Shown: positions 1,314 to 22,210 of the stretch, piece by piece | Numbering within the stretch: position 1 is the first letter of the stretch | Layout of the letters: every line of letters begins with the position of its first letter | Position numbers and translations under genes: made by a program | Virus record (IMG/VR): IMGVR_UViG_2724679239_000008 | Length of the DNA: 38,640 nt | Source: a virus | Taxonomy: Duplodnaviria; Heunggongvirae; Uroviricota; Caudoviricetes | Strand: one strand, 5' to 3' | The notes under the pieces: generated by a model | Databases searched by the model: none | What the model was told of the DNA's origin: nothing | The model's input: only the letters and a program-made list of their open reading frames with translations

Positions 1314-1318
1314 GAGAT

Positions 1319-5591: not shown

Positions 5592-5714
5592 TTTCAGGCG
5601 ACATAATAGTAGATATAGCGATTACGAAGCCACGCAATGCTTTTCTCCAGGAGCATCATCGATTTAATTAAAGACACTATCACATCTCTGTAACAGAGTG
5701 TACGTAATTAACAA

Positions 5715-6472: not shown

Positions 6473-6532
6473 CTATAACCTCATTCAAAACGCCACCCTG
6501 TAGCGCAATACCACAGGGGGAATAACGGAAAA

Positions 6533-7495: not shown

Positions 7496-7521
7496 AGGAG
7501 CCTCCTATGTCATTAATTGCG

Positions 7522-7914: not shown

Positions 7915-8291
7915 TTATAAATCTGCGAAACACCATTAAAAGCATTAGCATACACACCTGTTGGCGCTTGTTGAGAATGTCCATCCTCAATAGATTCGGC
8001 ATAAGGCAGGTTATTCTGGATGTAGATGATTCCGTAATTCGCCGCTTTTGAAATAACCCCGATTCCACGTTGAAGTGCAATCGTGCCATTCGGATCCACA
8101 TTATCAGATATACTAAAATCTGGGTGCTGTAACGATACCAGATTATTATTTCTGAAACGCCCGGTATCAACCGGAGCGGCAATATCAATAGCTGTAAGAA
8201 TCTGAATAGCGATGTAGCGAATTTTCAGTCCCACATCTTCCTCAATCATCCCAACAAATATTGACGGTTCCAGATCCCATGCCTTTGCCAT
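7911..8291 (-). CDS. head-tail joining protein (neck; synteny-based)
   Basis: 126-aa ORF in tightly coupled head-tail connector block. Confidence 0.45.
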   Translation of the reverse strand: MAKAWDLEPSIFVGMIEEDVGLKIRYIAIQILTAIDIAAPVDTGRFRNNNLVSLQHPDFSISDNVDPNGTIALQRGIGVISKAANYGIIYIQNNLPYAESIEDGHSQQAPTGVYANAFNGVSQIYK

Positions 8292-8678
8292 TTACTTTCT
8301 CCTTAACTGGATAGAATAAACCGATGCGGAAGGATCTACATGTACTGTAATTATCTCGTATCGTTGTAACTGCCTTGATACAGGATCATAAGTCTCAATA
8401 ATATGTCCGATAGCAGGTTTATCCGTAACCTCACAGGCCAGAGCAGTTAACTTAAGGTCGCCGTGCAAAATATTAATTCCATCAACTCTGCCAAGCTTAT
8501 AGCGTGCCAACACACCTCGTCCGGTATATGTTGTTGTAAGTTCGCGGCCTGTCTCCGTCACAGGCTCCCACCCCTGGTGCGTAACGTAAGAACCAGAAAA
8601 ATTATTCACCGCGTCAGCTAAATCACCATCAAAAGCAGCGGCAACCTCATCCTGAATCTCATCACGAATCCCCATCAT
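8292..8678 (-). CDS. head closure / head-tail adaptor protein (synteny-based)
   Basis: 128-aa ORF, coupled to flanking genes. Confidence 0.45.
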   Translation of the reverse strand: MMGIRDEIQDEVAAAFDGDLADAVNNFSGSYVTHQGWEPVTETGRELTTTYTGRGVLARYKLGRVDGINILHGDLKLTALACEVTDKPAIGHIIETYDPVSRQLQRYEIITVHVDPSASVYSIQLRRK

Positions 8679-9070
8679 CCCCCCCTCACAACCCTGACTT
8701 GTGAGTGACTCAGTCCGTACGGTTTCAGCAGCGCCAGCGCAAGCTGTAAATCGGGCTCAAGCAATGCAGTGCTGTTTGCTGATAATTCAGCAAATGATTT
8801 CGATACACTAACCCCATCAGCCGACACAGTTTTATTTATAACAACACCAGAATCATTTTTCTGCTGAAATAACTTACCTACAGAAGCGACTCTGGCAGCA
8901 TATGCTCCAGCGAGCTTTACCTCGTCAGGAATACTGGATGGATCAACCTTCAGACTAAAGTTATTCAACCAGGCATTGGCCATTAAAACCGCTTTATTTT
9001 TAACATCCTCATTCGCCCAGTTTTTCCCAAGCGTATTATCAACATCATCACAGGTAACGTAAGTGATCAT
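8675..9070 (-). CDS. head-tail connector / DNA packaging protein (gp6-like, synteny-based)
   Basis: 131-aa ORF immediately downstream of capsid gene block. Confidence 0.45.
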   Translation of the reverse strand: MITYVTCDDVDNTLGKNWANEDVKNKAVLMANAWLNNFSLKVDPSSIPDEVKLAGAYAARVASVGKLFQQKNDSGVVINKTVSADGVSVSKSFAELSANSTALLEPDLQLALALLKPYGLSHSQVRVVRGG

Positions 9071-9073
9071 GCG

Positions 9074-9298
9074 CTACTCCTGTGTTTTCCAGCCCAGCGC
9101 CTTCCAATTGTCAACTTCATCAGGATGAACATTAGCGATTGTTGGGGCACCGGGGAATATCTGATTCTCGGTCATCATAACTACCAACTTAATCGGTGTT
9201 TTTTGTGGTTCCCTGGTTTGCGCCGCCTTCCGCTCCGACACTGCATTTTTTTGCGCGGCATCACGCTGTGCTCTTTGATCTTTAGTCAATACAGCCAT
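9074..9298 (-). CDS. small hypothetical head-region protein
   Basis: 74-aa ORF between capsid terminator and connector gene. Confidence 0.4.
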   Translation of the reverse strand: MAVLTKDQRAQRDAAQKNAVSERKAAQTREPQKTPIKLVVMMTENQIFPGAPTIANVHPDEVDNWKALGWKTQE

Positions 9299-9310
9299 AT
9301 ACCCTCCATT

Positions 9311-9335
9311 AAAAAAGGGACCGAAGCCCCTTTTT
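9311..9335 (-). terminator. rho-independent terminator after major capsid gene
   Basis: minus-sense GGGGC-UUCG-GUCCC (UUCG tetraloop, one G-U pair) followed by UUUUUU. Confidence 0.55.
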
Positions 9336-9339
9336 GATT

Positions 9340-10479
9340 TTATCCAATAATCAGGCAGCTATGCGCAGGTTTCACTGACGAAACGCCCCATGCCAGCCCA
9401 ACTTCATAACGTACCTGACGATACTGACGATACAGTGCAATCTGAAATGTAATTCCCGAGATTGGGTCCGTAACATTCATTACATCATCAGCGCTATCGC
9501 CGCCCTCCGGCATTGCCGGGGTACGGGATGCCAACAGAAATGCGTTGCGATCGAACGCCATATTTGCAGTAAATGAGCCGACAACCGTGATTGCAGTATC
9601 ATCAGCCAGATCCTGACGTAGACCTGGTGCAGCAAGGGTAATCAGATTACTGGTTGCAGCAGCCACAACATACTGATTAGGATCGCCATCGAAAGTAACA
9701 ATCTGCCCTGCCGAAATATTCCCCGAACCAGTATCAATGGAAATAAGAACATCACCTTCTTTCTTCTCACCATTCACAAGATAACCAGTTGCAGTGGCTT
9801 TTGGTACTCGTTTTACACCTGCCGAACTGTGAATACTGAATCCCTCCAGGCGCCCCAACACCCCCTCGCGCAGTAGCTGCTCAGTGCCAGATTCATTCAC
9901 TTTAAACAATACGGACTGTTTTCCGCGCAAATTAGCAATAGCGGTGGAGCCAAGTACCATCTGTAAATCGGTTGTCGGTGCCCCGTTATCCTCCAGAATC
10001 TGACGAGCCAGAGCCGCATCAGAAAGATCATCTTTAACACCAAACGGCGTTGTCCCCGCGGTCCCAACAGCACGAGAAGCACCGAAATACAGTGCGCCAA
10101 GATCAGCCTCAACCTCGTTTGCAAGTGCTCGAAAAGCTTGCTTGAACTGATCAGCCAGAATGGTGTTGTAAGTCCCGGAAGGACCAAGCGCCAGTTGTTC
10201 TTCACCATTCCATTTAACTGGCGCCATTTTAGATTTAGTAATTTTTACATCAACAGTGCCAATATTTTGATCTCCAGTATTCGGAGCTGACGGGCCCGGT
10301 ACGATATCTTCAGTTTTCGCATCAGGCGCAACTGGCGCGGTTACCGTTTGATCTTTTGCTGCAGCGTCAGCTTTTGCGTTTTTTGCTACCGCAGGAATAA
10401 AACCTACCTGCTCACGGGATACAACATCCAGGGCGGTGTAAATAGTCGGGATCAACCCGGTCAGGGTATTTCCAGCCAT
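9340..10479 (-). CDS. major capsid protein
   Basis: large ORF downstream of scaffold gene; start chosen at ATG 10479 (MAGNTLTGL...) with AAGGA upstream rather than the RBS-less track start at 10572. Confidence 0.7.
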   Translation of the reverse strand: MAGNTLTGLIPTIYTALDVVSREQVGFIPAVAKNAKADAAAKDQTVTAPVAPDAKTEDIVPGPSAPNTGDQNIGTVDVKITKSKMAPVKWNGEEQLALGPSGTYNTILADQFKQAFRALANEVEADLGALYFGASRAVGTAGTTPFGVKDDLSDAALARQILEDNGAPTTDLQMVLGSTAIANLRGKQSVLFKVNESGTEQLLREGVLGRLEGFSIHSSAGVKRVPKATATGYLVNGEKKEGDVLISIDTGSGNISAGQIVTFDGDPNQYVVAAATSNLITLAAPGLRQDLADDTAITVVGSFTANMAFDRNAFLLASRTPAMPEGGDSADDVMNVTDPISGITFQIALYRQYRQVRYEVGLAWGVSSVKPAHSCLIIG

Positions 10480-10578
10480 AATTAAATATTCCTTAAAATT
10501 TTGCGTAATTGTAAATGAATTGAGTAGTGAGCTATCCAGCCCTGACGCCAGTCCCCATCCAGGAACTGGCAAAATGTG

Positions 10579-11343
10579 TTAGTCAACGATAGTGATACCG
10601 TCTTTCAGTGCGTTTTGCTTACCTGCAACATCCAGTGCATCAAAAGCTGATCGCTTCATCGTTTTCTGACCAATATCATGCTGTGTCGGACGGGAGCCGC
10701 CACCATTGTTGCCACTGGCTTTCAGGATGTAGTCTTTCTGAGGGTAATTTTCGACGAGGAACTCCAGCGCCTCATCAAACTGCGCCAGTTCGCCTGGCTT
10801 CGTGCGGGAGTAAATTTTGTTGCCGGAAGCGTCATAAGCAACGATCTTCCCTTCTTCCACTTTGAATGACTGTCCGAAGCGGGCCTGTAATAAATCTGCC
10901 GGGATCGCAATTTTATCGGCAATATATTTTGAACCAGCAAAACTACCGCCAATCATGGAATCGTAAAGCTGCTTCTCCAGCATCTGAGAGCGTTGCTTTT
11001 CTTCGTCTAATTGCTGCTGAAAATTTTTCGTAATTTCTGCTTTAACCTGGTCAACCTGTCCCGCATCAATCAGTTTTTTCTGGTCAATTTTGGACAGCAT
11101 TTCCAGCGCCTCAATCGCCTTTTTCGGGTCATCGATGGCAGCGAACCTGGCAAGTTTTTCCTCTGCGGCCTCTTTAGCCAGACGATGATTTTTCGCCTCG
11201 CCATTAAGTTCTGTAATTTTTCTGGCTGCCAGCGGTGCATCGAAGCCGATTTCTTTACCATCATCATGCACATAAACTGGCAGACCAGCAGTGTCGATTT
11301 CTGCGTATTTTTTTCCGTTAATCTCTACTGTTTTCAGTTTCAT
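10579..11343 (-). CDS. capsid scaffolding protein
   Basis: charged, coiled-coil-rich ORF upstream of capsid gene; start at ATG 11343 (MKLKTVEINGKKY) with AGGT 6 nt upstream. Confidence 0.6.
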   Translation of the reverse strand: MKLKTVEINGKKYAEIDTAGLPVYVHDDGKEIGFDAPLAARKITELNGEAKNHRLAKEAAEEKLARFAAIDDPKKAIEALEMLSKIDQKKLIDAGQVDQVKAEITKNFQQQLDEEKQRSQMLEKQLYDSMIGGSFAGSKYIADKIAIPADLLQARFGQSFKVEEGKIVAYDASGNKIYSRTKPGELAQFDEALEFLVENYPQKDYILKASGNNGGGSRPTQHDIGQKTMKRSAFDALDVAGKQNALKDGITIVD

Positions 11344-11403
11344 ATTAATACCTGATTTAAGTCTTCCGACTGTTACACTGCTCACTATCCAGATTGCAGC
11401 AAT

Positions 11404-11427
11404 AAAAAAGGCCACCCGAAGGTAGCC
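11404..11427 (-). terminator. rho-independent terminator after head morphogenesis gene
   Basis: minus-sense GGCUACC-UUCG-GGUGGCC followed by UUUUUUAUU. Confidence 0.55.
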
Positions 11428-11447
11428 TGTTGTAATAAATAATTAAT

Positions 11448-12563
11448 TTAAATCCCGGCTTTTCTGAATGCCTGAGCATCACGCTCACGGAGTTGTCCCA
11501 GCGTCAACCATTCACCTTTATCGGTGTAAAATTCATCTGGTGACATACCTCCATCACGAATCAGTTTTGCCCGTGTTTCTCCCACTATTTGTTTTTGCCT
11601 GGCATAAGACTGGCGCAAAAACCATTCCTTGTAAGTCGTATCTCCGGCTACAACCCCATCCATACTTGCCCTCTCGGCAGGAGAAACATCCCGAACATCA
11701 ATCCCCAGTTCCTTCGCAGATTTCAGAATAAACGTTTCTGTTGAACGGCAGCAGAAATGAATTTTTCCCGGCCCCTGTAAATAAGGCACTTTGTGACCAA
11801 TAGGTTTATTATCCAGCGTATATTTGAGGCGATCCCTGATTCGACACTGTGGTGTAGTACGATTATCAAGTGTGGATAACCATTGTTTGCCCTTTATCAA
11901 ATCATTGTTTGCCATGGCGAAACTCTCACGGGCAGTAGCAGCAAGATGCCCAACCGCTGTTTTTGCAATACTGGCCGCATTAGCTCGACTCATCTGCAAT
12001 GCACCATCCTGAAACCCCTTACTGACATGCCCACGAATTTTTCTTGCGATCTGCTCATTGGTATCACCCAGCAAAAAACCCTGACGTACCGTATTTGTAA
12101 TACGCCTGAGCCGATCTGCTTCAAGGTCTGAGGCCCATTCGTTGAGTAGTCTTCCCTGAAATGGACGCGCCATTGCAGCGGCATAAAGGGTGTCAGGTGA
12201 GATACCAATCAGAGGATGAATATCCGCCACAAAATCAGGAAGCAAAGAGTCAAACAGATTTAACTGATAGCTAGCCTCATATATCGCCAGCTCGTTTAAC
12301 TCTCCTGAGAGACGAGCAAACATACTGTTAATAGCAGTGCGGTTAACTTCCCTCACACTCACCAGAAGTGATTCCAGACGCGTAACGGTGAAACTCCCCG
12401 GCCCCAAATTATCCAGAGCCACCAGCAAACGAGCTGTAAGCTCTGCGTCGCTGTCGTTCAGCGTTTTCACCATTCTGGCCGCTACACCTGTGCTATAGCG
12501 AGATATCCAGATAGCATGGGCAATCGATTCATCACGCAGCCGTTCATTCACTGTTTGCATCAT
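11448..12563 (-). CDS. head morphogenesis protein (SPP1 gp7 / Mu F-like minor head protein)
   Basis: 371-aa ORF directly downstream of portal with family-typical conserved region (TTPQCRIRD, GPGKIHFCCRS); overlaps portal by 20 nt. Confidence 0.7.
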   Translation of the reverse strand: MMQTVNERLRDESIAHAIWISRYSTGVAARMVKTLNDSDAELTARLLVALDNLGPGSFTVTRLESLLVSVREVNRTAINSMFARLSGELNELAIYEASYQLNLFDSLLPDFVADIHPLIGISPDTLYAAAMARPFQGRLLNEWASDLEADRLRRITNTVRQGFLLGDTNEQIARKIRGHVSKGFQDGALQMSRANAASIAKTAVGHLAATARESFAMANNDLIKGKQWLSTLDNRTTPQCRIRDRLKYTLDNKPIGHKVPYLQGPGKIHFCCRSTETFILKSAKELGIDVRDVSPAERASMDGVVAGDTTYKEWFLRQSYARQKQIVGETRAKLIRDGGMSPDEFYTDKGEWLTLGQLRERDAQAFRKAGI

Positions 12564-13950
12564 TGATTCCCATCAGCGTTACGCCCTGATTTTTTAATTC
12601 ATCGATCACTTCCTCTGGACGGGAATCCTGATCGATAAATTTCAACGCCTGCAACACCCGAACCGCATCAATCTGACGTATATCACCACCCTGACGCAAT
12701 GACTGAACAGCCAGCGCGGAGGATGAGTCAAACACCTGGGCAGATACATCCAGCTCAGTGCGCACATCCACATTGCCGCCGCAACTCTCTCCGATCCATT
12801 CCGCCATTATCTGGAGAATATTATCGAGGGCATCTTCGAGGGAGTTCGCCATTGTATAAAGCGGCGAGTTTTCCTGCATCCGCTCTTCATTGGTCTGATC
12901 AACAGATTTGGTGGATGTATTTTCAGCCCGCAGAAGTTTAGCGCCGGCATGACGCATCTGATTTTCCAGTTTCTCCAGAGATGTTTCGCCAGACTCTATC
13001 GCGGCACCGCTATGCTCAACATATTCAAGGCCATTTTTTGCCCTGTCATCAAAAATCGTCGCGGTGGATGCGCCAACCGTCAGTTCTTCATTCCTGTCCA
13101 GACCGTAGGCCACCAGCAATGGGACGCGGGCAACATGCAAAATATTGTCCTGCTCACTCTGGCTTTGCCAGTGCTTGATATTCAGCAAACCAAGATTAAG
13201 CAATGGCGGTGTACCACGCATAAACCCTGTTTTCTTCGTATACAGTGTTACCAGAGGAATATCATCACGACTGGTATTCCATGACTCGTGAAGCGTCCAG
13301 ACAGATTCGCCATTAGTACCTTCACTGCGCCGATAAATTTCAACGCGACGGGGCATAATATGGCGGATCTGCTCCACCTTCTTCTGCCAGAAATCATCAC
13401 CATCAATAATGATGACCTCTTTTATACGCAAATCAGTGAGAACAACTTTCCCTTTTTCAACTTTCGATTTCCATCCAATAACCTGGCGTGGATTCAGCAT
13501 CGTAACGTACGGGCGACCACCGGCCGCGTTTTCATCGGCTTTTGTCCGAATCTCTTTCATATCCGTTCGTGGATAGTCTACCAGCGCATGCGCCACACCA
13601 TACTGAAATGCGAGACTGAAAAATTGCTGCGCCCACACATCCAGTCGGCTCCCCTCCATATCGATATTTTCTGCATATTCCCTGATTTTTTCCGGCGTCT
13701 CTTCACTCAGCACTGTCGGCTCTGCAAATATGCGCCCAATATTTTGCTTAATACTTTCTTCATACACAGGAAGTAGCGTAGCCACAGACAAGCGTTTTTT
13801 ATATGTGTCTTCATCTTCATTAGGCCATTTAGGGAGATAATTTTCCCCCTGCCTACGCATTTCAAGCGTGCCACCCATCAGTGCATCGTTAATATCCCAC
13901 GCCTCCAGCATATCGTTATAGTCGAGGTTGGGTGTTGATATATCAGCCAT
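12544..13950 (-). CDS. portal protein
   Basis: 468-aa ORF immediately downstream of terminase large subunit, acidic C-terminus. Confidence 0.8.
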   Translation of the reverse strand: MADISTPNLDYNDMLEAWDINDALMGGTLEMRRQGENYLPKWPNEDEDTYKKRLSVATLLPVYEESIKQNIGRIFAEPTVLSEETPEKIREYAENIDMEGSRLDVWAQQFFSLAFQYGVAHALVDYPRTDMKEIRTKADENAAGGRPYVTMLNPRQVIGWKSKVEKGKVVLTDLRIKEVIIIDGDDFWQKKVEQIRHIMPRRVEIYRRSEGTNGESVWTLHESWNTSRDDIPLVTLYTKKTGFMRGTPPLLNLGLLNIKHWQSQSEQDNILHVARVPLLVAYGLDRNEELTVGASTATIFDDRAKNGLEYVEHSGAAIESGETSLEKLENQMRHAGAKLLRAENTSTKSVDQTNEERMQENSPLYTMANSLEDALDNILQIMAEWIGESCGGNVDVRTELDVSAQVFDSSSALAVQSLRQGGDIRQIDAVRVLQALKFIDQDSRPEEVIDELKNQGVTLMGINDANSE

Positions 13951-13952
13951 AA

Positions 13953-16271
13953 TTAAATCCGAAGTGATGTAACTCTTCCGGTCGGTTTGACAATAGGGAA
14001 TTGCTTAACAATAAAATAACCTCCGGCATCATTCGGGTGATCGTTGCCAGATTTTTTATCAGGCTCACCCTTATCATCCCAAACCTGTTGCTCCAGAGAT
14101 TCGGCATATACCGGACAACGCTTCACATTAACTTTATAGCGACGCTCACCATTGGCATTGCAGAACATTGCATTCATTGAGTTAACGCGATCTTTTACTG
14201 GCGGGTTCGAACTGTTTACAACAACGTTAAAACCAGCCTGTTTAAGCTGAGCAATATCCGTCGCACTTGCGTTATTTGATTTTCTGGAATCCCCGGATGC
14301 ATCAGGATAAATATAAATTTCCCTTACTTTCCGATAATCATTCCCGTCATATAACCAGAAGCGCTCTTTAATAATACGGATCATATCTGGTGTATCGTAA
14401 GCGTTAATGATTTCAGTTACTGCGCATGGAAGCCCAAAACGTAACACATGAACGACTCCAGCCATTTTTCCGACGTTAAAATCCATCCCGATATATATCG
14501 GCTCACCTGGCTGTTCCTCTTCTTCGCAATTATTCAGTTTTCGGTCAAACTGATGGTAAACAGTACCACTTGTCAGGTTAGTAAACTGTCCTCGAAGATA
14601 GGCTTTAATCAGCTCTGGAGGATATGACTCAAGGAGCGAGGGAATGTAATCTGCTGGCAAATTCTTTTCATTATCGAAAGTAGATGCCTGTACCAGACCA
14701 TACAGTGAGACCAGCTCTGTTTTTTCACGTACGGCTTTAACAAACTGCTCGTAGACAAATTTGAATCCTTCCGGCGTGGTTGTAACGTCAATACCGTTGC
14801 GAAGTCCATCAACCTTATAACGCATACGCGCAATTATCTTGCGCCACGCTGTTCTGGCTTTTTCCTTCGGCAAAATGTCCAGTTCATCCACCAGCGCATT
14901 ACCAATTTTGAAACCGACGATCGTTTGCGGCTTCTCCATCGATCTGCAGATAGTGGTTCCCCGATACTGACGTCCGTAATAAAAATGAACTTCTTTATTT
15001 CCCTCGTTAATTTTTACATTTAGCCCCCAGTCGGCAGCAACTTCTTCAACTGTGGGATAAAAAATATCGCGAATTTGTGGATATGTAGGCGCAAAATATC
15101 CCTGATTGATACCCGGATGCTCCCAAATCCCCTTACATATGCCACCACACCCAACCCATGTTTTACCGCTATTGTGATGAATCGTCCCATCAGCAGTTAC
15201 GTAGCAGTTATTATCCAATACCTGGAGGTCATAATATGGCTCGGCCTTCTGCAACAGTGTTACACTCAATATGTTGCAGGTTTCGATTAAGGAGTTTGGT
15301 TTTGACGCCTCTTGACCGTTTAATTTGTGATTTAGCACATCCAGAACGTACCGTTTCAGAAGTTGCTTCTCTGGCAGGTTGTGACCGCAGTCATGTTTAT
15401 CGTTGCATATCTCGTTATGGGTTAACGCTGAAACAACACCAGAAGCCTGTCCCTCGAGAAAGTGCGAAGGACAGAATCCTCGCTCTTGCTGATGGTCACC
15501 GTACGTCGGCAGAGATCGCGGCGGAAGTTGGTTGCACAGAAAAGCACGTTCAAAATATTCTCCGAATTCACAACGCCAACCGGCTACCCTGTGGCGCCAG
15601 AAAGGGTGAGTTGAACCCCAGCTTTCGTGGTGGTCGAATTGTTGATCTGGATGGATATGCCGTTGTTCCAGCGCCTGCTGACCATCCATATATGCGCAGA
15701 ACAGGCATGATGTTTGAACATCGTTTGATCGCTGAAAAGAAGCTGGGGCGTTATCTGCTGCCATCAGAAGTTGTTGACCATATCGACGGGCTTCATCTGC
15801 ATAACACCCCAAGTAATCTGCGAGTTTTTGATTCAAACGTGGATCACCTGCGTGCAACGATTTCGGGACGGCGGCCAAACTGGTCAGAAGAAGGTTTTGC
15901 GAAGATGCAAATACCTTCACCGATTCGTCCAGACTATCCACAGATCGATAGCTACCGTCAGCGCAAAAAACGCGGTGATGTCCGCTTGCTACAAATTCTC
16001 CTCGCTGCGTCACTACTCGGTATAGATTCGCCACACCTTTTGGGTACGCACCACCACTTAGCGAAAGCTCAAATCGATTATTCTCATCCGACCAAGATAA
16101 AACGCGCATTGGTCGAGTTATTTCCTGAATGGGTAGAATCCCATTCTCTGTAACCACAGGCGTACTTCCCCTCAGGCAACCAAAACCAGCAACATAGGCT
16201 TTAAATTTATGAGGCATAGAAAGAAATCGCGCCTGAGGCACATTAAGCGTCGGAGAGATCATCTTCATCAC
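13953..16271 (-). CDS. terminase large subunit precursor containing an intein in the Walker A P-loop
   Basis: 772-aa ORF; N-extein ends KFKAYVAGFG, C-extein starts SGKTWVG (reconstitutes a P-loop); C-extein about 400 aa with nuclease-type C-terminus; coupled to small subunit and portal. Confidence 0.85.
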   Translation of the reverse strand: MMKMISPTLNVPQARFLSMPHKFKAYVAGFGCLRGSTPVVTENGILPIQEITRPMRVLSWSDENNRFELSLSGGAYPKGVANLYRVVTQRGEFVASGHHRVFCADGSYRSVDSLDESVKVFASSQNLLLTSLAAVPKSLHAGDPRLNQKLADYLGCYADEARRYGQQLLMAADNAPASFQRSNDVQTSCLFCAYMDGQQALEQRHIHPDQQFDHHESWGSTHPFWRHRVAGWRCEFGEYFERAFLCNQLPPRSLPTYGDHQQERGFCPSHFLEGQASGVVSALTHNEICNDKHDCGHNLPEKQLLKRYVLDVLNHKLNGQEASKPNSLIETCNILSVTLLQKAEPYYDLQVLDNNCYVTADGTIHHNSGKTWVGCGGICKGIWEHPGINQGYFAPTYPQIRDIFYPTVEEVAADWGLNVKINEGNKEVHFYYGRQYRGTTICRSMEKPQTIVGFKIGNALVDELDILPKEKARTAWRKIIARMRYKVDGLRNGIDVTTTPEGFKFVYEQFVKAVREKTELVSLYGLVQASTFDNEKNLPADYIPSLLESYPPELIKAYLRGQFTNLTSGTVYHQFDRKLNNCEEEEQPGEPIYIGMDFNVGKMAGVVHVLRFGLPCAVTEIINAYDTPDMIRIIKERFWLYDGNDYRKVREIYIYPDASGDSRKSNNASATDIAQLKQAGFNVVVNSSNPPVKDRVNSMNAMFCNANGERRYKVNVKRCPVYAESLEQQVWDDKGEPDKKSGNDHPNDAGGYFIVKQFPIVKPTGRVTSLRI
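15171..16178 (-). other. intein (336 codons) within terminase large subunit
   Basis: starts with Cys (CLRGSTPVVTENGILPIQEI), block B-like GEFVASGHHRVF, ends YDLQVLDNNCYVTADGTIHHN followed by Ser; codon boundaries verified on the sequence (gca at 16176-16178 = Cys, att at 15171-15173 = Asn). Confidence 0.75.
15236..16153 (+). CDS. HNH endonuclease (HNH_3-type with N-terminal HTH segments), encoded antisense inside the intein
   Basis: plus-strand ORF; ATG 15236 preceded by GGAGG (15224-15228); translation verified: GYAVVPAPADHPYMRRTGMMFEHRLIAEKKLGRYLLPSEVVDHIDGLHLHNTPSNLRVF; the track ORF starts further upstream at ATG 15158 without RBS. Confidence 0.65.
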   Translation: MARPSATVLHSICCRFRLRSLVLTPLDRLICDLAHPERTVSEVASLAGCDRSHVYRCISRYGLTLKQHQKPVPRESAKDRILALADGHRTSAEIAAEVGCTEKHVQNILRIHNANRLPCGARKGELNPSFRGGRIVDLDGYAVVPAPADHPYMRRTGMMFEHRLIAEKKLGRYLLPSEVVDHIDGLHLHNTPSNLRVFDSNVDHLRATISGRRPNWSEEGFAKMQIPSPIRPDYPQIDSYRQRKKRGDVRLLQILLAASLLGIDSPHLLGTHHHLAKAQIDYSHPTKIKRALVELFPEWVESHSL

Positions 16272-17196
16272 TCCTCACTCTGGCATCAACCACATTAATA
16301 TTGATCGCCACAGGCTGGGGATGTTCATTACCCTCCACCGTTTCGATCTCTTTGCGCAGTTTCTGGTTTTCCATTCTGCGCCGTTCAATTTCCAGTTCCT
16401 GTAGTCGCTTATCTGCACATAATGCCCCGCCAGCGGAAAGCAAACGCAATAATTCACGCCGGGCGGCAGCTTTATTCTCCAGCAGGATCTCAACGCCGAA
16501 TTTTCCGAGCTTTGCTCCTGCATACAATTGCCGCGCATTTCCATCAAGCAAAGTGGTATCAGCCATATAAAGCTGACCTGTACCTTCTCCACCGCATTTC
16601 GGACAGTCTGGATTTGGTATGGCGCTATCAACGAAACCGAGGCCACCATATTCAGGTTCTGGTTTACCATCTTTGGATGCCTGCGCGGCAGCCCTGTCAA
16701 ATTCTGCTATATCGCGCCACTGATAGAGGTGATTCTCCCCCCAGCAATAGCGACAGTTAACACGGCGAAATTGCGCAAGCTGATTGGGATCAGCCTGCAC
16801 GATGGCCATCAACTGACTCACCAGTAAATCCAGGTCTGCGGTATAGCGTTTCTGGTAATGATTGCGAAAGTAGCTGATGGCACGAAAAACCCTGGCATTT
16901 CTAAGCATACGACTGGCATTGCTGTTTGCTGTCGCACCTTGCCCCTCGTAACCAGCCAGGCGGTATGCCTCTGTCGGCTTTTTCCCCTGAGCAACCAACA
17001 TGGCGAATTTTGCCTGCTGGTCAGAAATACCGAATTCATCGGGGCAGAACGAAATTTCTTCCGTGTCCCCCTCAATCAGGAGTGCATCGGATACAGCCTT
17101 TTTTTTCTGAGATTTTCCGTTTTGCTTTTGCGCAGTCTGCGCAGTTTTTTTTTCGCGCACTTTTTTGCGCAGTTTTGCGCACTTCTGTCTGCGCAT
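16243..17196 (-). CDS. terminase small subunit (Terminase_2-like HTH), start uncertain
   Basis: 317-aa ORF with AKFAMLVAQGKKPTEAYRLAGYEGQGATANSNASRMLRN motif, Cys-rich and coiled-coil C-terminus; overlaps large subunit start; its ATG 17196 has no Shine-Dalgarno. Confidence 0.65.
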   Translation of the reverse strand: MRRQKCAKLRKKVREKKTAQTAQKQNGKSQKKKAVSDALLIEGDTEEISFCPDEFGISDQQAKFAMLVAQGKKPTEAYRLAGYEGQGATANSNASRMLRNARVFRAISYFRNHYQKRYTADLDLLVSQLMAIVQADPNQLAQFRRVNCRYCWGENHLYQWRDIAEFDRAAAQASKDGKPEPEYGGLGFVDSAIPNPDCPKCGGEGTGQLYMADTTLLDGNARQLYAGAKLGKFGVEILLENKAAARRELLRLLSAGGALCADKRLQELEIERRRMENQKLRKEIETVEGNEHPQPVAININVVDARVRSDEDDLSDA

Positions 17197-17338
17197 TTTT
17201 CGGAGGTTTTTTGATGTAACGACGGGCTGTTGCGTAATTCAGTCCCTTTGCTTCACACCACGCCACCGGAGACACACCGGAGCGGGTGTATTCAGCAATA
17301 TATTCCTGCTGCAACGTCCCCCAGTCCGGTCTGCTCAT
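17072..17338 (-). CDS. small HTH protein, or frameshifted N-terminal part of the terminase small subunit
   Basis: 88-aa ORF with AGGA RBS, HTH-like YIAEYTRSGVSPVAWCEAKGLNYATARRYIK, lysine-rich tail; overlaps the next ORF by 125 nt in another frame. Confidence 0.4.
   Translation of the reverse strand: MSRPDWGTLQQEYIAEYTRSGVSPVAWCEAKGLNYATARRYIKKPPKNAQTEVRKTAQKSARKKNCADCAKAKRKISEKKGCIRCTPD
17129..17195. repeat. six spaced TGCGCA/CGCGCA motifs separated by T-runs (candidate pac or terminase-binding repeats)
   Basis: motif starts at 17129, 17138, 17154, 17166, 17176, 17190; T8 at 17099-17106 and T9 at 17145-17153. Confidence 0.35.
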
Positions 17339-17341
17339 CAG

Positions 17342-17593
17342 TTAGTCCTGATTTTTATCCACCCTGAGTAATGCACGCAGAGCAAAGGCATCCCCTTTTC
17401 TGGCAAGCTTAAACAATGCCGCCCGTAGCTCGGCTTCACCTTTCGCTCTGCCCTTACGGATGGACGCATAAAAATTTGTCATTGCTTCCCGATTTTCTTT
17501 CAGTCTGTTCAGATCAACATCCAGAACGTCAGCGATTTGTTGTGCAGTCATCCGGCACGCTGCCAGAGACTCGACTTTCGAATACGGAATCAT
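17342..17593 (-). CDS. hypothetical small DNA-binding protein
   Basis: 83-aa ORF with GGGGGTGA RBS, HTH-like CRMTAQQIADVLDVDLNRL. Confidence 0.45.
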   Translation of the reverse strand: MIPYSKVESLAACRMTAQQIADVLDVDLNRLKENREAMTNFYASIRKGRAKGEAELRAALFKLARKGDAFALRALLRVDKNQD

Positions 17594-17972
17594 TTATCAC
17601 CCCCATTGATATGCAGGGTGTCTTCTTCCTGTATTTTTCGTGAAGGATTTTTACTGCAGCGTTGTTCCAGGTGACCTGATGGTGAATGCGTTTATGGCTG
17701 GCGCCCATCAGTGAGATTTTTACGCACGACGGCGCATACATGACGGAGTAAAAACTTTTAACGTAGGTGCCGGAATCCAGATACAGTTCGGTCATTCCGC
17801 CGCTGTTTTTCTGCGTTTGCTTCTGCCCTAACTGGACAGCGCCAATCGTCAAAAACAATTCACCACGACGACCGAGATTCGTGTATGTATTCACATCCTC
17901 GTTAATACGCCCCATAAATGAGAATGGTCGGTCAACAGAACAAATAAAGCTGTTCATTGCTTTGCGTTTCAC
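17529..17972 (-). CDS. hypothetical protein; probable C-terminal part of a gene split at a G9 tract
   Basis: 147-aa frame starting at GTG with no RBS, continuous with upstream ORF after a 1-nt frame change. Confidence 0.4.
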   Translation of the reverse strand: MKRKAMNSFICSVDRPFSFMGRINEDVNTYTNLGRRGELFLTIGAVQLGQKQTQKNSGGMTELYLDSGTYVKSFYSVMYAPSCVKISLMGASHKRIHHQVTWNNAAVKILHEKYRKKTPCISMGVINDSVFESRVSGSVPDDCTTNR

Positions 17973-17994
17973 CCATGCAGCATGACCACCATTA

Positions 17995-18462
17995 TCACCA
18001 AGAAAGTCCCCCCCCCTGCGCCATAGCGATGGAAAGCGCAGGAATTGATTCGTAATACGCCAGCATTTCAGAAAGGATCGAGTCCAGTTTCCTTATCGGA
18101 AAATAAGCCTGGTCATAGTTGCGATCTACCCGAAACTGAAACTCGTGATAGTCGTCATCAAGCTGGATGTAGTATTTACACCCAACCTTTTTTGCCAGGC
18201 CCAGACAGGCATTCCTGGCATAAAAGATTGAACGTCGATCGCCAAAGTTGTCGGCTTCATCAAAACGACTGGCGATATCGGCTTTGGAAAACACCAGCAC
18301 CTGTTCACCAAATTCTGCTACGTACTGATGCCGGGTTTTATCTTCATCATCAACAACGATAAAAATTTTCCCGGTATAGCCAGCACGACGCAACGTCCGG
18401 TAAGTCAGAACTTTGTCCGGTCGCCCGTGAGTCAGAATAAAGGCGCAAAAATCATCACGCAT
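17995..18462 (-). CDS. hypothetical protein with DxD-like motifs; N-terminal part of split gene
   Basis: start at ATG 18462 (MRDDFCAF) with GAGGAGGA RBS; IVVDDED and QLDDDY motifs; ends three codons after a G9 run. Confidence 0.5.
   Translation of the reverse strand: MRDDFCAFILTHGRPDKVLTYRTLRRAGYTGKIFIVVDDEDKTRHQYVAEFGEQVLVFSKADIASRFDEADNFGDRRSIFYARNACLGLAKKVGCKYYIQLDDDYHEFQFRVDRNYDQAYFPIRKLDSILSEMLAYYESIPALSIAMAQGGGLSW
18008..18016. repeat. homopolymer tract (C9 on plus, G9 in coding sense)
   Basis: counted directly in sequence; lies at the junction of the two ORF fragments. Confidence 0.9.
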
Positions 18463-18463
18463 A

Positions 18464-19243
18464 TTACTCCTCCTCGCCATGCATGATCTCCACCATGCGC
18501 TGCGTCATCCTGACAAACCCATTTTCAATTGCCTGCTGATAATCAATGATCACCAGAGCCGATTCCTCAAAAAAGCTCTGAATTTCAGCGGGGGCGTGAG
18601 CGTAATAGTCCGCGATTCTGCTGAAATTAAACACCGTGTGACGTTCTGCCGCGCACAGAAGGAATTTCTCAATATCAGGATCAAGGGACACCGAACGTAT
18701 CCGGCTGATCAGCTCCTGAGTTTTCGTATCGTCGTACAGTTCACAGATATCCGGTTTATCGCCTGACGGCTCATAAACAGGCGTATCAATTTTCGTCGTA
18801 TACGGCTCCTCCTCATTTCCTGTACCAGGCAAAATATCCGTCAACAGTTCATCAATTTCTGTCGGGCTGAAGCCTGTCAGGGAGACATCAAAATCAGCAT
18901 TAATTAGGTCCGACAGCTCCATCCGTAACAGATCTTCATCCCAGCCAGCATTCATCGGCAGGCGATTATCTGCCAGACGGTACGCCTTTTTCTGATCATC
19001 CGTCAGACCAGACAGAACGATGACCGGAACGAAATCCATTTTGAGCACTTCAGCCGCCATAACGCGACCGTGACCCGCAATAACTTCGCCCTTTTCATCA
19101 ATCAGCACCGGATTAGTCCAGCCAAATTGCTTAATGCTTTCTACCAGTTGCGTCACCTGCTCAGGGCTGTGTGTCCTGGCATTGTGTGCATACAGAGACA
19201 GCTCTTGTAACGGGCGATAGACGATCTTCAATTTCTCGCTCAT
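18464..19243 (-). CDS. ParB-like nuclease domain protein
   Basis: 259-aa ORF with ParB N-terminal-type motifs (YAHNARTH, VIAGHGRVMAA); GAGG RBS. Confidence 0.7.
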   Translation of the reverse strand: MSEKLKIVYRPLQELSLYAHNARTHSPEQVTQLVESIKQFGWTNPVLIDEKGEVIAGHGRVMAAEVLKMDFVPVIVLSGLTDDQKKAYRLADNRLPMNAGWDEDLLRMELSDLINADFDVSLTGFSPTEIDELLTDILPGTGNEEEPYTTKIDTPVYEPSGDKPDICELYDDTKTQELISRIRSVSLDPDIEKFLLCAAERHTVFNFSRIADYYAHAPAEIQSFFEESALVIIDYQQAIENGFVRMTQRMVEIMHGEEE

Positions 19244-19528
19244 ACAGCCTCGCTTTATTAATAAAAAAGCCCGCTATCGGCCAGTGCGCAGGGTGCGCGG
19301 CGGGTGCAGATAACGAGCTTTGACATTATCGAAGCCCCCTATCAAAGGAGCTTCTGTAATGTCAGTCCAGAACGAACGTAACCTTTGTATTTGTCGCTCG
19401 CCGTACAAGACGCGCTGCTTCGCGTTGCATTTCATCGATAACTTTTGGCGTCATCGGCTAATGCGCATATTTACATTCAATCACTGCAAAAAATCCCGTT
19501 CATCGTTTCGCTGTCTGGTGGGATAACT

Positions 19529-19873
19529 TCAACGTTTAATCGTGCCATTGGTTTGTGCTGCCCTGTTTTTCTCAAAAGTCCTGATATCAGCCTTATCCCT
19601 GTTGCACTGTGCTAACGCTGACAACAATGCAACATTCAGGTTAAGGCTTGCCCCCCACGTAAACGGGTCGGGTAAATCTGGCTGGGGTGTTTCAGCCGTC
19701 AGACTGGCTGGTAACGGAACCACCGGCACCGACACGTATACCGTTCGCGTATTCGTGCAACCGCTTAACTGCGCCAGAAGGAACGATACGAACAGCGCAA
19801 TCATCATCCGCAACAGCCACTTTGATATCTTTCTGGATTCTCTGTGACTCCAGTGCGATCTGCTGTTTTGCAT
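19529..19873 (-). CDS. o-spanin (Rz1-like outer membrane lipoprotein); real start probably near 19807
   Basis: lipobox LAQLSGC after hydrophobic stretch, Pro-rich mature part; overlaps Rz 3' end in another frame. Confidence 0.55.
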   Translation of the reverse strand: MQNSRSHWSHRESRKISKWLLRMMIALFVSFLLAQLSGCTNTRTVYVSVPVVPLPASLTAETPQPDLPDPFTWGASLNLNVALLSALAQCNRDKADIRTFEKNRAAQTNGTIKR

Positions 19874-20084
19874 GCTGGTTAGCCTCTATAACTGTGTTGA
19901 TGATTTGCAGTGATTGCAGGACGTTACGGGTAATGGCTGTTGCTGATTCAGCATTTCGTACAGCCTCATCAGCGCGCTCCTTTTCGTGTTGATATTTGCT
20001 GTAGTAATGCCCGGCATACCAGATAAAAGAACCGATGACGGTAACAAAGAAGGCAACAATAACCAGCTTATATCTCAGCTTCAT
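19692..20084 (-). CDS. i-spanin (Rz-like)
   Basis: 130-aa ORF with N-terminal transmembrane helix then coiled-coil, directly after endolysin. Confidence 0.6.
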   Translation of the reverse strand: MKLRYKLVIVAFFVTVIGSFIWYAGHYYSKYQHEKERADEAVRNAESATAITRNVLQSLQIINTVIEANQHAKQQIALESQRIQKDIKVAVADDDCAVRIVPSGAVKRLHEYANGIRVGAGGSVTSQSDG

Positions 20085-20544
20085 TTACCACCCCACCAGC
20101 TTCTTTAAATCGGGCAATCAGGTCACCGATTCTATGTTCATACTGACCGTAACCAGCGCCCGGCAACGAAGCCCAGATATTGCTGCAACGGTCGATTGCC
20201 TGACGAATATCGCCGCGGTCAATCATCGGTAATGCGCCACGCTCTTTAATCTGCTGCAGCGCTACAGCATCCTGACTTTCTGGAGAAAAATCTTTCAGGC
20301 CAAGTTGCTTGCGGTAGGCATCCCACCAGCGTGAAAGAAGCTGGTAACGTCCGGCGGCTGTTGATTTGAGTTTCGGATTTAGCGTGACAAGTTTGCGGGG
20401 GTGATCGGAGTAATCAGTGAACAGTTCGCCACCGACAATAACATCATAACCGTGATTTCTGGTTTTCTGCCGTCCGTTATCCGTTCCTTCTGACCATGCC
20501 ACCATATCAAGGAAAGCTTTACGCTGGGAATTCAGTGTCTGCAT
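20068..20544 (-). CDS. R: endolysin, lambda R-type lytic transglycosylase
   Basis: 158-aa ORF recognised as near-identical to lambda R (QRKAFLDMVAWSEGTDNGRQKTRNHGYDVIVGGELFTDYSDHPRKLVTLNPKLKST). Confidence 0.9.
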   Translation of the reverse strand: MQTLNSQRKAFLDMVAWSEGTDNGRQKTRNHGYDVIVGGELFTDYSDHPRKLVTLNPKLKSTAAGRYQLLSRWWDAYRKQLGLKDFSPESQDAVALQQIKERGALPMIDRGDIRQAIDRCSNIWASLPGAGYGQYEHRIGDLIARFKEAGGVVNEAEI

Positions 20545-20547
20545 TAA

Positions 20548-20883
20548 TTACTCCTTATGGGCACCAAACTTGTTACCGATGACCCTCATTGCCGCACCAC
20601 GAATAGCATCAACACCAATCAGCCCCACCCCACCACCAATGGCAACAGAAAGTGATTTAGGCCATCCGACATACTCAAGCGCGGATGCAAAAGTCAACGT
20701 CAGAGCACCACAGAGCAAAATCTCAAGCGTTTTTCGTTTCCAGCCCCCACCACCGCCAAAATAGGCGATGCGCAAACCAGCCATAACGATCGACATAATC
20801 ACTGCACCCAGCGGTGTATCTCCACGCCACCAGCTCTGAAACAACTCCAGCCAGTCCGGCCAGGTATTTGGGTTATGAGGCAT
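20548..20883 (-). CDS. putative holin
   Basis: three predicted TM segments, charged C-terminus, immediately upstream of endolysin; start at ATG 20883 with GAGGTGA upstream (track start 20907 lacks RBS; dual start possible). Confidence 0.6.
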   Translation of the reverse strand: MPHNPNTWPDWLELFQSWWRGDTPLGAVIMSIVMAGLRIAYFGGGGGWKRKTLEILLCGALTLTFASALEYVGWPKSLSVAIGGGVGLIGVDAIRGAAMRVIGNKFGAHKE

Positions 20884-21004
20884 TTCATCATCTCTCACCT
20901 CGCACATATCGCGGGTGCAAATTGAGGGAATAAAAAATCCCCGAATATTCCGGGAGCGGAAACGGGGAAAGGCGTTGCACTAAATGGGCCTGTCTGCGGC
21001 CTTA

Positions 21005-21031
21005 AATAAAAAACCCCGGCAAATGCCGAGG
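21005..21031 (-). terminator. putative rho-independent terminator in late leader
   Basis: minus-sense CCUCGG-CAUUUG-CCGGGG followed by UUUUUUAUUU. Confidence 0.4.
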
Positions 21032-21252
21032 TCAGTTAATCGTTGCCGCTGTTAGTGCCGCGGTGCACTATCTCTTTATCAGGCTACTTACGCGTTAAAA
21101 CGGGTGCCAACCGTAACTCAGTGATGCTTTACGCTTCCTCTCCTTCACTACGTCGCCATGGGAGCCCGACCAGATTAACGCTGTCGTCACGTTGCCAAAA
21201 TATGGCATCCAATGAATTCTTTTTATTTAGCTATTTCATTTTTCTATCCGTC

Positions 21253-21281
21253 AGAAACAACAAAACCCGCTCGGTGGCGGG
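21253..21281 (-). terminator. tR'-like terminator downstream of Q
   Basis: minus-sense CCCGC-CACCGA-GCGGG followed by UUUUGUUGUUUCU, about 100 nt downstream of Q stop. Confidence 0.5.
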
Positions 21282-21380
21282 TTCTATTAAAGTTCAATTG
21301 CACTTGGTTCGCCTCGCGATACAGCTTTGCGAAGCGTAGCTGAATTGAATCAGTTTATTGGCAAAAATGCAATAACTTTT

Positions 21381-21923
21381 TTATTGGCTTTCTCCGCATA
21401 ACGCTAATTTCATTGGTATATACAGAATGTGCTCAGCAACACTCAACCATGCGTCAATGCGATTTCTGCAAGTTTTCAAGCTCCAGCCAGGGCGATACTC
21501 ATTTAACTGTTGTGCCATTTTCAGCTTACTCATCCCCCGTCCCTCATACCGTTGTCGAAGGACGCTAATCAATCCCGGATGTTCTGTCAGCACCTCACTT
21601 ATAACCCGATCAATACATAACGCCTCTGCATCAGTACAATGCGCCAGCCAGCTCTTTTGCTTCCCGTTGATCATCTCACGTAAAAATGCTTCCAGCTCCG
21701 GCTTCTCTATTCCCGCTTTTTTAATCCTGCGCAGGGCTTCATTGACGGCTGTTTTCGTCAATTTTTTGGATGCCAGCAACTGGTTAAACATATTTCCCAT
21801 CTTACCGCCGCCAATATACGACCAGCGCCCCCACATGCGCAGTTTTCCCTGAATCCAGACACTTTCCAGCGTGGTGAGACGAAGGTGTTCCCCGCTTTTG
21901 CCTGTATTTGTTGGGTAAATCAT
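21381..21923 (-). CDS. Q: late antiterminator Q-like protein
   Basis: 180-aa ORF directly upstream of late leader and lysis genes; Q-family size and position. Confidence 0.65.
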   Translation of the reverse strand: MIYPTNTGKSGEHLRLTTLESVWIQGKLRMWGRWSYIGGGKMGNMFNQLLASKKLTKTAVNEALRRIKKAGIEKPELEAFLREMINGKQKSWLAHCTDAEALCIDRVISEVLTEHPGLISVLRQRYEGRGMSKLKMAQQLNEYRPGWSLKTCRNRIDAWLSVAEHILYIPMKLALCGESQ

Positions 21924-22210
21924 AAATAACCTTCCTTTCTCCAGATTTCTGGTGTGCGAAAAACACCTTCTGCATGCATCAGGCGCAATTCTTCTTTGGT
22001 GTAATCACTGGTTTTTACCCGCCCGTCGATTAAATCGTGGCACGAGCTACAGGCAATCGCTGCCTGCATATCATGTGGCTTTATCGCTGTTCCGCACGTT
22101 CCCGCCAGTCGGTAATGCGCCAGCACAGACGTTTCGGGATTGTGATTGCAGTAGCCAGGGATTCTGACCTGGCACATCTGGCCCCGCGCTGCTTTACGTA
22201 AACTCACCAT
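21920..22210 (-). CDS. nin-region Cys-rich protein (YbcO/DUF1364-like)
   Basis: 96-aa ORF with several Cys/His (CNHNPETSVLAHY, CSSCHDLIDG); TAATG coupling with upstream gene. Confidence 0.45.
   Translation of the reverse strand: MVSLRKAARGQMCQVRIPGYCNHNPETSVLAHYRLAGTCGTAIKPHDMQAAIACSSCHDLIDGRVKTSDYTKEELRLMHAEGVFRTPEIWRKEGYL

Follow-up and report, generated by a model that had tools for sequence, protein, structure and literature searches.

We analysed a stretch of viral DNA of 38,640 nucleotides (IMG/VR virus record IMGVR_UViG_2724679239_000008, Caudoviricetes; the whole stretch is called the window below) in which the gene for the large terminase subunit, TerL, is interrupted in frame inside its Walker A motif. 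In our reading, to which we give a probability of about 0.85, the interruption is a class-1 HINT intein (Cys1 / His-Asn / Ser+1) placed at GxxG|SGKT, and a separate gene for an HNH endonuclease is carried antisense within it. Both open reading frames (ORFs) named by the original prediction, which was made from the bare letters, exist in the window: the minus-strand frame of 772 aa at 13953..16271, and a plus-strand frame that begins at 15158 or 15236 and ends at 16153.

The mechanism we favour would run as follows. TerL would be translated as a 772-aa precursor, the two splicing halves of the intein (residues 1-93 and 297-336) would fold together, and the 336-aa insert would be excised with ligation of the exteins, which restores the P-loop in a 436-aa terminase. 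The ~200 codons in the middle of the intein would be the reverse complement of a separately expressed gene with its own Shine-Dalgarno (SD) sequence and the start codon TTG 15302, and in most relatives a near-consensus sigma-70 promoter of this HNH gene would also lie inside the intein. The HNH product is predicted to comprise two N-terminal helix-turn-helix (HTH) modules, an I-HmuI-like HNH_3 core and a C-terminal helical domain. Its targets for nicking or cutting would be terminase alleles that lack the intein, in or close to the sequence that encodes the P-loop; repair from the intein-bearing copy would then copy intein and nuclease gene together into the empty site, i.e., homing. The antisense frame of the HNH gene would stay free of stops because selection acts on TerL function, and, since the last ~85 HNH codons overlap the N-terminal domain of the intein, that stretch would be constrained by both proteins.

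The intein and its empty site

The TerL precursor ORF (13953..16271, minus strand; 772 aa) matches Pfam Terminase_6N with E 6e-31 and Terminase_6C with E 4.7e-10. The original prediction placed an in-frame insert in its P-loop at 15171..16178, and these boundaries held: the insert is exactly 1008 nt long and lies between the G and the S of the Walker A motif, and its translation starts with CLRGSTPVVT and ends with TIHHN, followed by SGKTW. Upstream of it, the N-extein (16179..16271, minus strand) consists of 31 codons and ends with ...AYVAGFG, the first half of Walker A, while the C-extein (13953..15170, minus strand) starts with SGKTW... and offers Ser, codon AGC, as the +1 nucleophile. Without the insert, 1311 nt remain, and they align gap-free with the TerL gene of E. 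coli WP8-S18-CRE-02, which has no intein and encodes 436 aa. Its product reads AYVAGFGSGKTW, so that the contiguous sequence for which the original prediction had proposed an alignment with intein-less homologues was indeed found. Around the P-loop site, the intein-less allele is GCTGGTTTTGGCTCGGGTAAAACATGG, also given as GTCGCTGGTTTTGGCTCGGGTAAAACATGGATT; the junction codons are GGT|AGC in the window and GGC TCG in the inspected empty allele. The predicted products of splicing are thus a TerL of 436 aa and an excised intein of 336 aa.

We searched the TerL region by megablast against 5426 complete E. coli genomes, 786 of which hold the terminase. In 785 of these 786, the two match pieces abut in the subject and sum to exactly 1311 nt, indicative of no insert and of a P-loop that reads GFGSGKTW. 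The only carrier is strain MEI003 (NZ_CP071263; 98.7% identical), i.e., 1 of 5426. The interruption is hence an in-frame insertion that is absent from collinear alleles, as expected of a class-1 intein.

The insert (15171..16178, minus strand; 336 codons) carries the residues of such an intein, namely Cys1, S65-G-H-H68 in block B, D317 in block F and the terminal H335-N336, with GEFVASGHHRVF and ...TIHHN|S as the hallmarks in the window. In 36 diverse relatives of the intein frame, C1, T10, G13, I17, L52, G60, H68, D317, V320 and H334-H335-N336 are invariant. The S-G-H-H of block B fits the TxxH pattern, and the +1 residue is Ser or Thr throughout the relatives, so the full class-1 set (Cys or Ser at position 1, TxxH, His-Asn, and Ser, Thr or Cys at +1) is present. 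We also examined the fold with an AlphaFold2 (AF2) model, which is confident for residues 1-93 and 297-336 only (pLDDT, the predicted score in the local distance difference test, 75-93, all beta strand). The first of these parts is the N-terminal splicing domain (15900..16178, minus strand; blocks A and B; pLDDT 75-91, beta-rich), and the second is the C-terminal splicing domain (15171..15290, minus strand; blocks F and G, ...YYDLQVLDNNCYVTADGTIHHN; pLDDT 83-93), which is kept in every locus where the junction was found. A Foldseek search with the model matched the Ssp DnaE intein with a target-normalised TM-score of 0.77, and also the Spl DnaX, Ssp/Npu DnaB and Mtu RecA inteins together with many mini-inteins, at E values of about 1e-6 to 1e-4. 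The intein proposed originally from Cys1, block B and a C-terminus followed by Ser is thus borne out by its residues and by a predicted fold that matches solved mini-inteins, and the model supports assignment to the HINT fold and to class 1.

Between the two domains lies a sense-frame filler (15291..15899, minus strand; residues 94-296) with pLDDT <50, in which variation falls mostly at intein codon position 2. Its size had been put at about 230 codons; measured from the pLDDT profile it is ~203. The claim that the middle of the intein is open and encodes no endonuclease in the sense frame stood, since the frame is open and holds no endonuclease domain. The model suggests that the filler would be translated and removed with the intein, forming no folded domain and being merely kept free of stops.

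Sequence profiles gave a two-sided answer to the comparison with intein models that the original prediction had called for. The profile built from the 36 relatives matches the Spl DnaX mini-intein and the Ssp DnaB, gp41-1 and Pho RadA inteins among PDB sequences, and 29 of the 36 match Pfam Intein_splicing at E < 0.01 (best 6.8e-9), whereas the window intein itself stays below the curated thresholds, with 17.1 against 35.8 bits for Intein_splicing and 12.8 against 24.5 bits for TIGR01445, because the long filler splits the match. Against PDB sequences the intein profile scored best with a designed 'circular tendon repeat protein', a match that we set aside as spurious and that is made up of eight stretches of ~4 bits each in the filler. 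We also considered a group I intron and rejected it: covariance models recognised no ribozyme core, and, as no Rfam family matches at E <= 1 on either strand of 14900..16500, there is no detectable group I intron.

Phages isolated from plaques carry the interrupted gene as well. We checked the architecture directly in Pectobacterium phage Ymer and Pseudoalteromonas phage PHS3, and tblastn found the same HNH in six Pectobacterium/Dickeya phages related to Ymer. As plaque-forming phages live with an interrupted TerL, splicing would have to work in them, an indirect argument for autocatalytic protein splicing of TerL. It is very improbable that the insert is instead a tolerated, non-splicing in-frame insertion that hides an HNH gene, like the hidden domain in phage ShiLan, and is no true intein. 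The HNH core of ShiLan is 43-44% identical over ~80 aa and its host frame is also open (PMC11855218), and the sub-threshold Pfam score of the window intein would fit such an insertion. Yet ShiLan has no splicing blocks, whereas Cys1, TxxH, the block F Asp and His-Asn are invariant here, with Ser at +1, and the predicted fold is HINT; in ShiLan the HNH shares the strand of its host gene in another frame and is not antisense (PMC11855218); and, judging from the structure of P-loop NTPases, a 336-residue loop between the G and the S of GxxGSGKT would destroy Walker A unless it were removed.

The antisense HNH gene and the frames it shares

The HNH homing-endonuclease gene occupies 15302..16153 on the plus strand, 283 codons from a conserved TTG at 15302; alternative readings are 305 aa from ATG 15236 and, in the Prokaryotic Genome Annotation Pipeline (PGAP), 331 aa from ATG 15158. 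The plus-strand protein had been described as having two HTH-like segments and an HNH_3 motif, and Pfam recovers both above threshold. The two HTH modules (15326..15586, plus strand) match HTH_29, HTH_28 and HTH_23, two stretches each, with pLDDT 87-97, and the catalytic core (15719..15829, plus strand; EHRLIAEKKLGRYLLPSEVVDHIDGLHLHNTPSNLRVF) scores 25.5 bits against the HNH_3 profile, the search proposed with the original prediction, for which the cut-off is 24.8. PHROG 10730, 'HNH endonuclease', matches the same protein with E 4e-49. The AF2 model has a mean pLDDT of 81.5, with disorder in the first 20 residues of the 305-aa form only, and its best structural match is I-HmuI; a search of the HNH-family profile against PDB sequences returned HTH repeat proteins only. 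In an alignment of 26 homologues the residues EH-R, DHIDGL, HN, N-L-R, N and H are invariant, i.e., a beta-beta-alpha-metal motif with conserved catalytic His and Asn, and the invariant catalytic residues and the SD sequence are all intact in the window copy. The homologues form 458 protein clusters, from Yersinia, Pseudomonas aeruginosa, Acinetobacter, Phycisphaerae and many metagenomes; the family is also found in 301 IMG/VR stretches, and an exhaustive search with hidden Markov models (HMMs) yielded 365 representatives at E <= 1e-30. The predicted target of the protein, for nicking or cutting, is the empty P-loop coding site.

To survey the layout, we took 80 IMG/VR loci encoding HNH relatives (43-100% identity) together with the window and MEI003, i.e., 82 sequences, and added Ymer, PHS3 and four distant metagenomic relatives from the exhaustive HMM search, for a total of 88. 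The same antisense frame is free of stops across the HNH gene in 88 of 88 loci and always in the same phase, with HNH codon position 1 facing intein position 1, position 2 facing 3 and position 3 facing 2. The remaining two antisense frames hold 2-26 stops across the 82 sequences, with 18 and 19 in the window. The open frame forms part of an ORF of 666-942 aa in every complete locus. The junctions are uniform despite very diverse exteins, reading GxxG|C[LVIM]xxxTx[VI]xT ... NNYVTxDGxIHHN|S[GST]K[ST], and GxxG|C...HN|S/T-x-K-S/T across the 88 loci. A complete endonuclease ORF thus lies opposite an intein whose sense frame is open and free of endonuclease.

An antisense frame of this length could be open by chance, and a shuffling test had been suggested for this reason. 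When synonymous codons of the window HNH ORF were shuffled, the intein frame acquired 8.7 stops on average, and none of 2000 trials was free of them, which places the open frame far beyond chance. For a set of 48 sequences with pairwise identities <90%, a mean of 7.7 stops was expected and none was observed in any of the 48. The reverse shuffle, for the HNH frame across the N-terminal domain of the intein, showed a modest effect, with ~2.3 stops expected and a P(0) of ~0.08 per sequence.

Codon-position diversity across the 48 sequences further resolved which protein is selected where, free positions elsewhere having values of ~0.6-0.7. From 15173 to 15290, over blocks F and G, selection is for the intein only: variation is at intein position 3, about 0.46-0.62, with ~0.15 elsewhere across 15173-15232. 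From 15293 to 15892 it is for the HNH only, the intein frame being merely open, and variation is at HNH position 3 (~0.65; 0.33-0.53 over the HNH motif). From 15893 to 16130 all three codon positions are depressed (0.15-0.51), indicative of joint constraint, and from 16133 to 16178, over block A, variation returns to intein position 3, so that selection is again for the intein only. Within the enterobacterial clade, the variable sites of the HNH-only zone are distributed 29/21/89 over HNH positions 1/2/3 (89 of 139 at position 3), and in the close clade no variable site falls at HNH position 3 within the dual-coding zone. Amino-acid differences between the window and its relative L008 amount to 42% in the filler, 16% in the HNH, 8% in the N-terminal and 12% in the C-terminal domain of the intein. 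Judged by these patterns of substitution, the HNH frame is under purifying selection. Together with the 88 open loci, this agrees with the earlier view of a separate antisense nuclease gene in which both strands are kept open.

These data also bear on whether the TerL gene is simply a pseudogene, broken by a free-standing HNH gene, with the long minus-strand ORF an accident. Public annotation leans this way: PGAP records the MEI003 gene as TerL 'incomplete; missing N-terminus' plus a separate 'HNH endonuclease', and the record of phage PHS3 splits the gene likewise; the gene of the small terminase subunit (TerS) in the window is, moreover, frameshifted. Nevertheless we consider a broken TerL highly improbable. 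All 88 of the 88 loci keep the frame open, where ~8 stops would be expected; the length of the insert is divisible by three, its place in the P-loop is always the same, and it carries Cys1 and HN|S; diversity at intein codon position 3 is as under purifying selection in the splicing blocks; and the insert has a predicted HINT fold and is carried by plaque-forming phages.

The dual-coding zone proper (15893..16153, both strands) sets the C-terminal helical domain of the HNH antisense to intein residues about 9-95 (blocks A-B). In the subfamily of the window, the HNH ORF ends within 25 nt of the first codon of the intein, so that the last ~85 HNH codons are antisense to residues 9-93 in the N-terminal domain. 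This C-terminal domain is covered by the top ~45 representatives only, the other strong hits ending near profile position 205-215, and in four such shorter relatives with a readable intein N-terminal domain the HNH stop is near the end of that domain. The pattern suggests, and does not prove, that the C-terminal domain of the HNH is an extension grown over the antisense of the splicing domain. We would go one step further only tentatively: by overprinting, a nuclease that invaded a mini-intein might have extended its frame by ~85 residues (15893..16153), co-constraining two unrelated proteins and locking them into an inseparable mobile unit.

As to the start of the gene, the original prediction chose ATG 15236, with a GGAGG before it. 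The starts of the homologues fall instead in the column of TTG 15302 (47 ATG, 13 TTG and 2 GTG), and codons 15236-15301 show no selection in the HNH frame and low pLDDT. An SD sequence AAGGAG (15289..15294, plus strand) lies 7 nt before TTG 15302, and, judged by eye, a GGAG-like motif stands upstream in most of the 62 listed HNH starts. The true start is thus probably TTG 15302 rather than ATG 15236. We then aligned 47 sequences on the HNH start and scored promoters against the consensus, out of 12, with background windows of the same size. Across the family there is a sigma-70-type promoter inside the intein, with the -35 box at -58 or -55 and a 17-nt spacer. At least 9/12 of the consensus is reached in 31 of 47 sequences versus 2.3% of background windows, and at least 10/12 in 14 of 47 versus 0.3%; one locus has a perfect TTGACA-17-TATAAT. 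The corresponding position in the window (15248..15275, plus strand) holds a degenerate TCTGCA-16 nt-TATGTT, 7/12, and an alternative extended -10 is TG (15258-9) n TACACT (15261-6). With either of them, transcription would begin downstream of ATG 15236, an argument for TTG 15302.

The -35 TTGACA sits opposite the intein codons for a conserved V-K-R just before block F (reverse complement of GTC AAG CG), both at 15248..15275 in the window and at the equivalent position in loci L008-L082. Part of the intein conservation there may therefore come from the promoter. From the layout of the ORFs in 1..22800 of the window (TerL, HNH and TerS were checked), the long head/tail-type ORFs are almost all on the minus strand, and only the HNH is well supported there as a gene on the plus strand. 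Over its whole length, the HNH mRNA would be complementary to that of TerL.

Distribution, decay and annotation of the cassette

The distribution of the element is sporadic, with 1 of 786 E. coli alleles occupied, which, like the junction codons that differ from those of the inspected empty allele, speaks for mobility. Among loci, ~980 pairs have TerL exteins that are 15-30% identical and HNH proteins that are 41-60% identical; as the HNH is more alike than the exteins, the cassette is probably younger than the divergence of its host genes. The joined exteins of the window differ from the inspected empty allele at 25 sites in the first 300 nt, at none in 300-500 and then increasingly again, a density of mismatches that is suggestive of co-conversion and not conclusive. 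Among the matches listed, no intein-less E. coli allele is nearer than ~94% over the full length. One distant relative of the cassette (L087:3-494, minus strand) lies in a P-loop protein, after ...GLIHHN|SGKSVSMANR.... Its C-extein fragment of 148 residues matches no Pfam family, which leaves its identity as a terminase unconfirmed, and it may represent a switch to a different host gene.

Two relatives hold less than the full cassette. At L079:3876-4547, the HNH is without promoter, SD, start codon and both HTH modules while an intein frame of 224 aa is still open; it looks like a nuclease in decay. At L085:1998-2402 (protein P0126) we found a homologous mini-intein of 135 aa in the same P-loop position, GGLG|CMRDSTPV...TIHHN|SGKS, with no HNH gene; the antisense frame equivalent to the HNH holds many stops.

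Several observations weigh against our main reading, beyond the intein scores given above. The internal promoter is a poor match, at 7/12, and a standard sigma-70 scan of the window found no promoter above threshold. The identities of inteins are correlated overall with those of exteins (r 0.82), and none of the close pairs is discordant, whether as HNH >= 80% with extein < 50% or as extein >= 85% with HNH < 65%; recent homing is therefore something we infer rather than demonstrate. Among the closest copies (the window versus MEI003 or L005), 8-9 of 11 HNH substitutions change the amino acid, and these changes, taken with a split TerS, mean that this prophage copy may be decaying. The split of TerS into overlapping minus-strand ORFs (16243..17196 and 17072..17338) is caused by one extra A in a poly-A run at ~17145-17154, relative to the intact 364-aa TerS of MEI003. 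This 1-nt indel may have arisen as an error of sequencing, may be a genuine frameshift that inactivates the gene, or may mark a slippery site. In MEI003 (L001 3001..5406), an 87-nt tandem duplication lies near the 3' end of TerL, in which 29 residues, VVVNSSNPPVKDRVNSMNAMFCNANGERR, are repeated and because of which the precursor there is 801 aa.

Such facts could be put together differently: the architecture would be as described, and the nuclease gene in this copy an inactive, decaying passenger at a late stage of the homing cycle, with the intein kept because TerL needs its removal. The weaker promoter (7/12 here against at least 9 in 31 of 47 relatives), the non-synonymous share of recent HNH substitutions, the frameshifted TerS of the window and the duplication in MEI003, the presence of the element in 1 of 5426 complete E. 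coli genomes and the decay intermediates L079 and L085 all speak for this. On the other side, the invariant catalytic residues and the SD sequence are intact, HNH position 3 carries 89 of the 139 variable sites in the HNH-only zone of the enterobacterial clade, as under purifying selection, and the substitutions that separate the closest copies are too few to settle the matter. We regard an inactive nuclease in the window as unlikely, and retain the intein with a putative antisense homing endonuclease. Having a host-type promoter of its own, a cassette of this kind might be active in the prophage state and attack the TerL gene of superinfecting intein-less relatives, being a weapon of competition as well as a homing device.

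The original prediction had also raised a role in DNA packaging, which fared poorly. The HNH gene is located inside the terminase gene, and partnerships of HNH proteins with terminases are known (PMC3592412), so that the protein might be a packaging accessory nuclease as in HK97-like cos phages and no homing endonuclease. However, in 785 E. coli genomes the terminase gene lacks both the insert and the HNH, TerS abuts TerL directly in the one intein-less allele inspected, and the HNH is lost in relatives in which intein and TerL stay intact (L079, L085). The protein is of the HNH_3 / I-HmuI-like type with two HTH modules, not a small zinc-binding packaging HNH, and the TerL is of Terminase_6 type with an RNaseH-like nuclease domain of its own. 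Membership in the packaging HNH group was accordingly rejected on lack of conservation in related phages (785 of 786 E. coli without it in TerL) and on domain type, and a packaging function appears extremely improbable.

Current annotation hides this class of element. Databases of predicted proteins contain almost no match to the intein-frame protein (6 among 5.8 billion), no PHROG family matches the intein frame, and public records label the locus 'hypothetical protein', truncated terminase plus HNH, or pseudogene. Since automatic gene prediction retains the HNH and shortens TerL or marks it as a pseudogene, protein-based intein surveys miss these inteins, and prophages with this layout may be wrongly scored as defective. 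The layout is nonetheless widespread, being nested in all 88 inspected loci of a large and mostly mis-annotated phage terminase family. It offers a natural system for the study of long antisense overlaps, with ~600 nt in which one frame is selected only for openness, ~240 nt of true dual coding, and a promoter and an SD sequence embedded in coding sequence. The series from full-length element through truncated HNH to mini-intein supports the idea that free-standing endonuclease genes invade splicing-only inteins, and the tolerance of the intein for ~200 unstructured residues at the insertion loop is of practical interest for intein engineering.

Comparison with known systems

The closest systems are inteins with an antisense endonuclease, and the HNH joins a short list of endonuclease types found antisense within inteins. 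An antisense gene for a LAGLIDADG homing endonuclease was described in the Ssp DnaX intein (Gorbalenya 1998), and a survey of actinophage inteins (Gosselin, Arsenault & Gogarten, bioRxiv 10.1101/2025.01.02.630785) describes antisense LAGLIDADG and VSR-like genes, some of them in TerL. The original prediction regarded a separate antisense nuclease as unusual in itself; as these works already report the arrangement for the LAGLIDADG and VSR-like types, it is the HNH type that appears to be new here. According to the same survey, the antisense-endonuclease inteins (Ssp DnaX, Chloroflexus SpoVR-like and actinophage) share with the window a splicing domain in frame with the extein, a sense-frame middle that is unstructured, and an endonuclease that is a separate ORF on the opposite strand, with some examples in TerL, and they are proposed to have arisen when free-standing endonuclease genes entered inteins (bioRxiv 10.1101/2025.01.02.630785). 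The window differs by its HNH_3 / I-HmuI-like nuclease with two HTH modules, and the hosts of its family are phages of Proteobacteria and metagenomic relatives versus actinophages. A conserved internal sigma-70 promoter and SD sequence were found in the family of the window and are absent from the consulted passages of the actinophage survey, in which HNH is listed as an in-frame domain only (bioRxiv 10.1101/2025.01.02.630785). Because the nuclease is of the HNH_3 type and not LAGLIDADG or VSR-like, the cassette of the window would be a variant outside the antisense subtypes described so far. The searchable literature, whose coverage is incomplete, yielded no account of an intein with an antisense HNH, so an earlier description is possible.

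With respect to the insertion site, mycobacteriophages carry the inteins TerL1-a and TerL1-b at or next to GK|T in terminases of the Terminase_1 type, and Terminase_6 inteins lie in the C-motif (Kelley et al. 2016, PMC5050341). The mycobacteriophage P-loop inteins and the window intein have in common the Walker A site of the TerL ATPase domain, in an essential late gene (PMC5050341). The window intein, however, is inserted three residues earlier (G|SGKT) than the TerL1 inteins and in a TerL of Terminase_6 type. With respect to the nuclease, the gene of I-HmuI lies within a group I intron, in sense orientation, whereas the window HNH is associated with no intron and lies antisense inside an intein.

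The hidden HNH of ShiLan (Arsenault et al. 2025, PMC11855218) resembles the window in that an HNH_3-type gene is contained in an in-frame, stop-free insertion in a phage gene. There, no splicing domain is detectable and the HNH is in another frame of the same strand (PMC11855218), while the window has a full intein and an antisense HNH. The core of the window HNH (15590..15830) is 43-44% identical over ~80 residues to 44692..44913 of Mycobacterium phage ShiLan (NC_041988), where the insertion is in a DNA methylase; in view of this likeness, nucleases of one lineage may be concealed in several kinds of in-frame insertion. Finally, the fractured genes (Dassa et al. 2009, PMC2677866) share with the window an independent endonuclease gene between the intein halves. 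In fractured genes the host gene is divided into two ORFs whose products are spliced in trans (PMC2677866), whereas in the window the sense frame is open throughout and splicing is predicted to proceed in cis.

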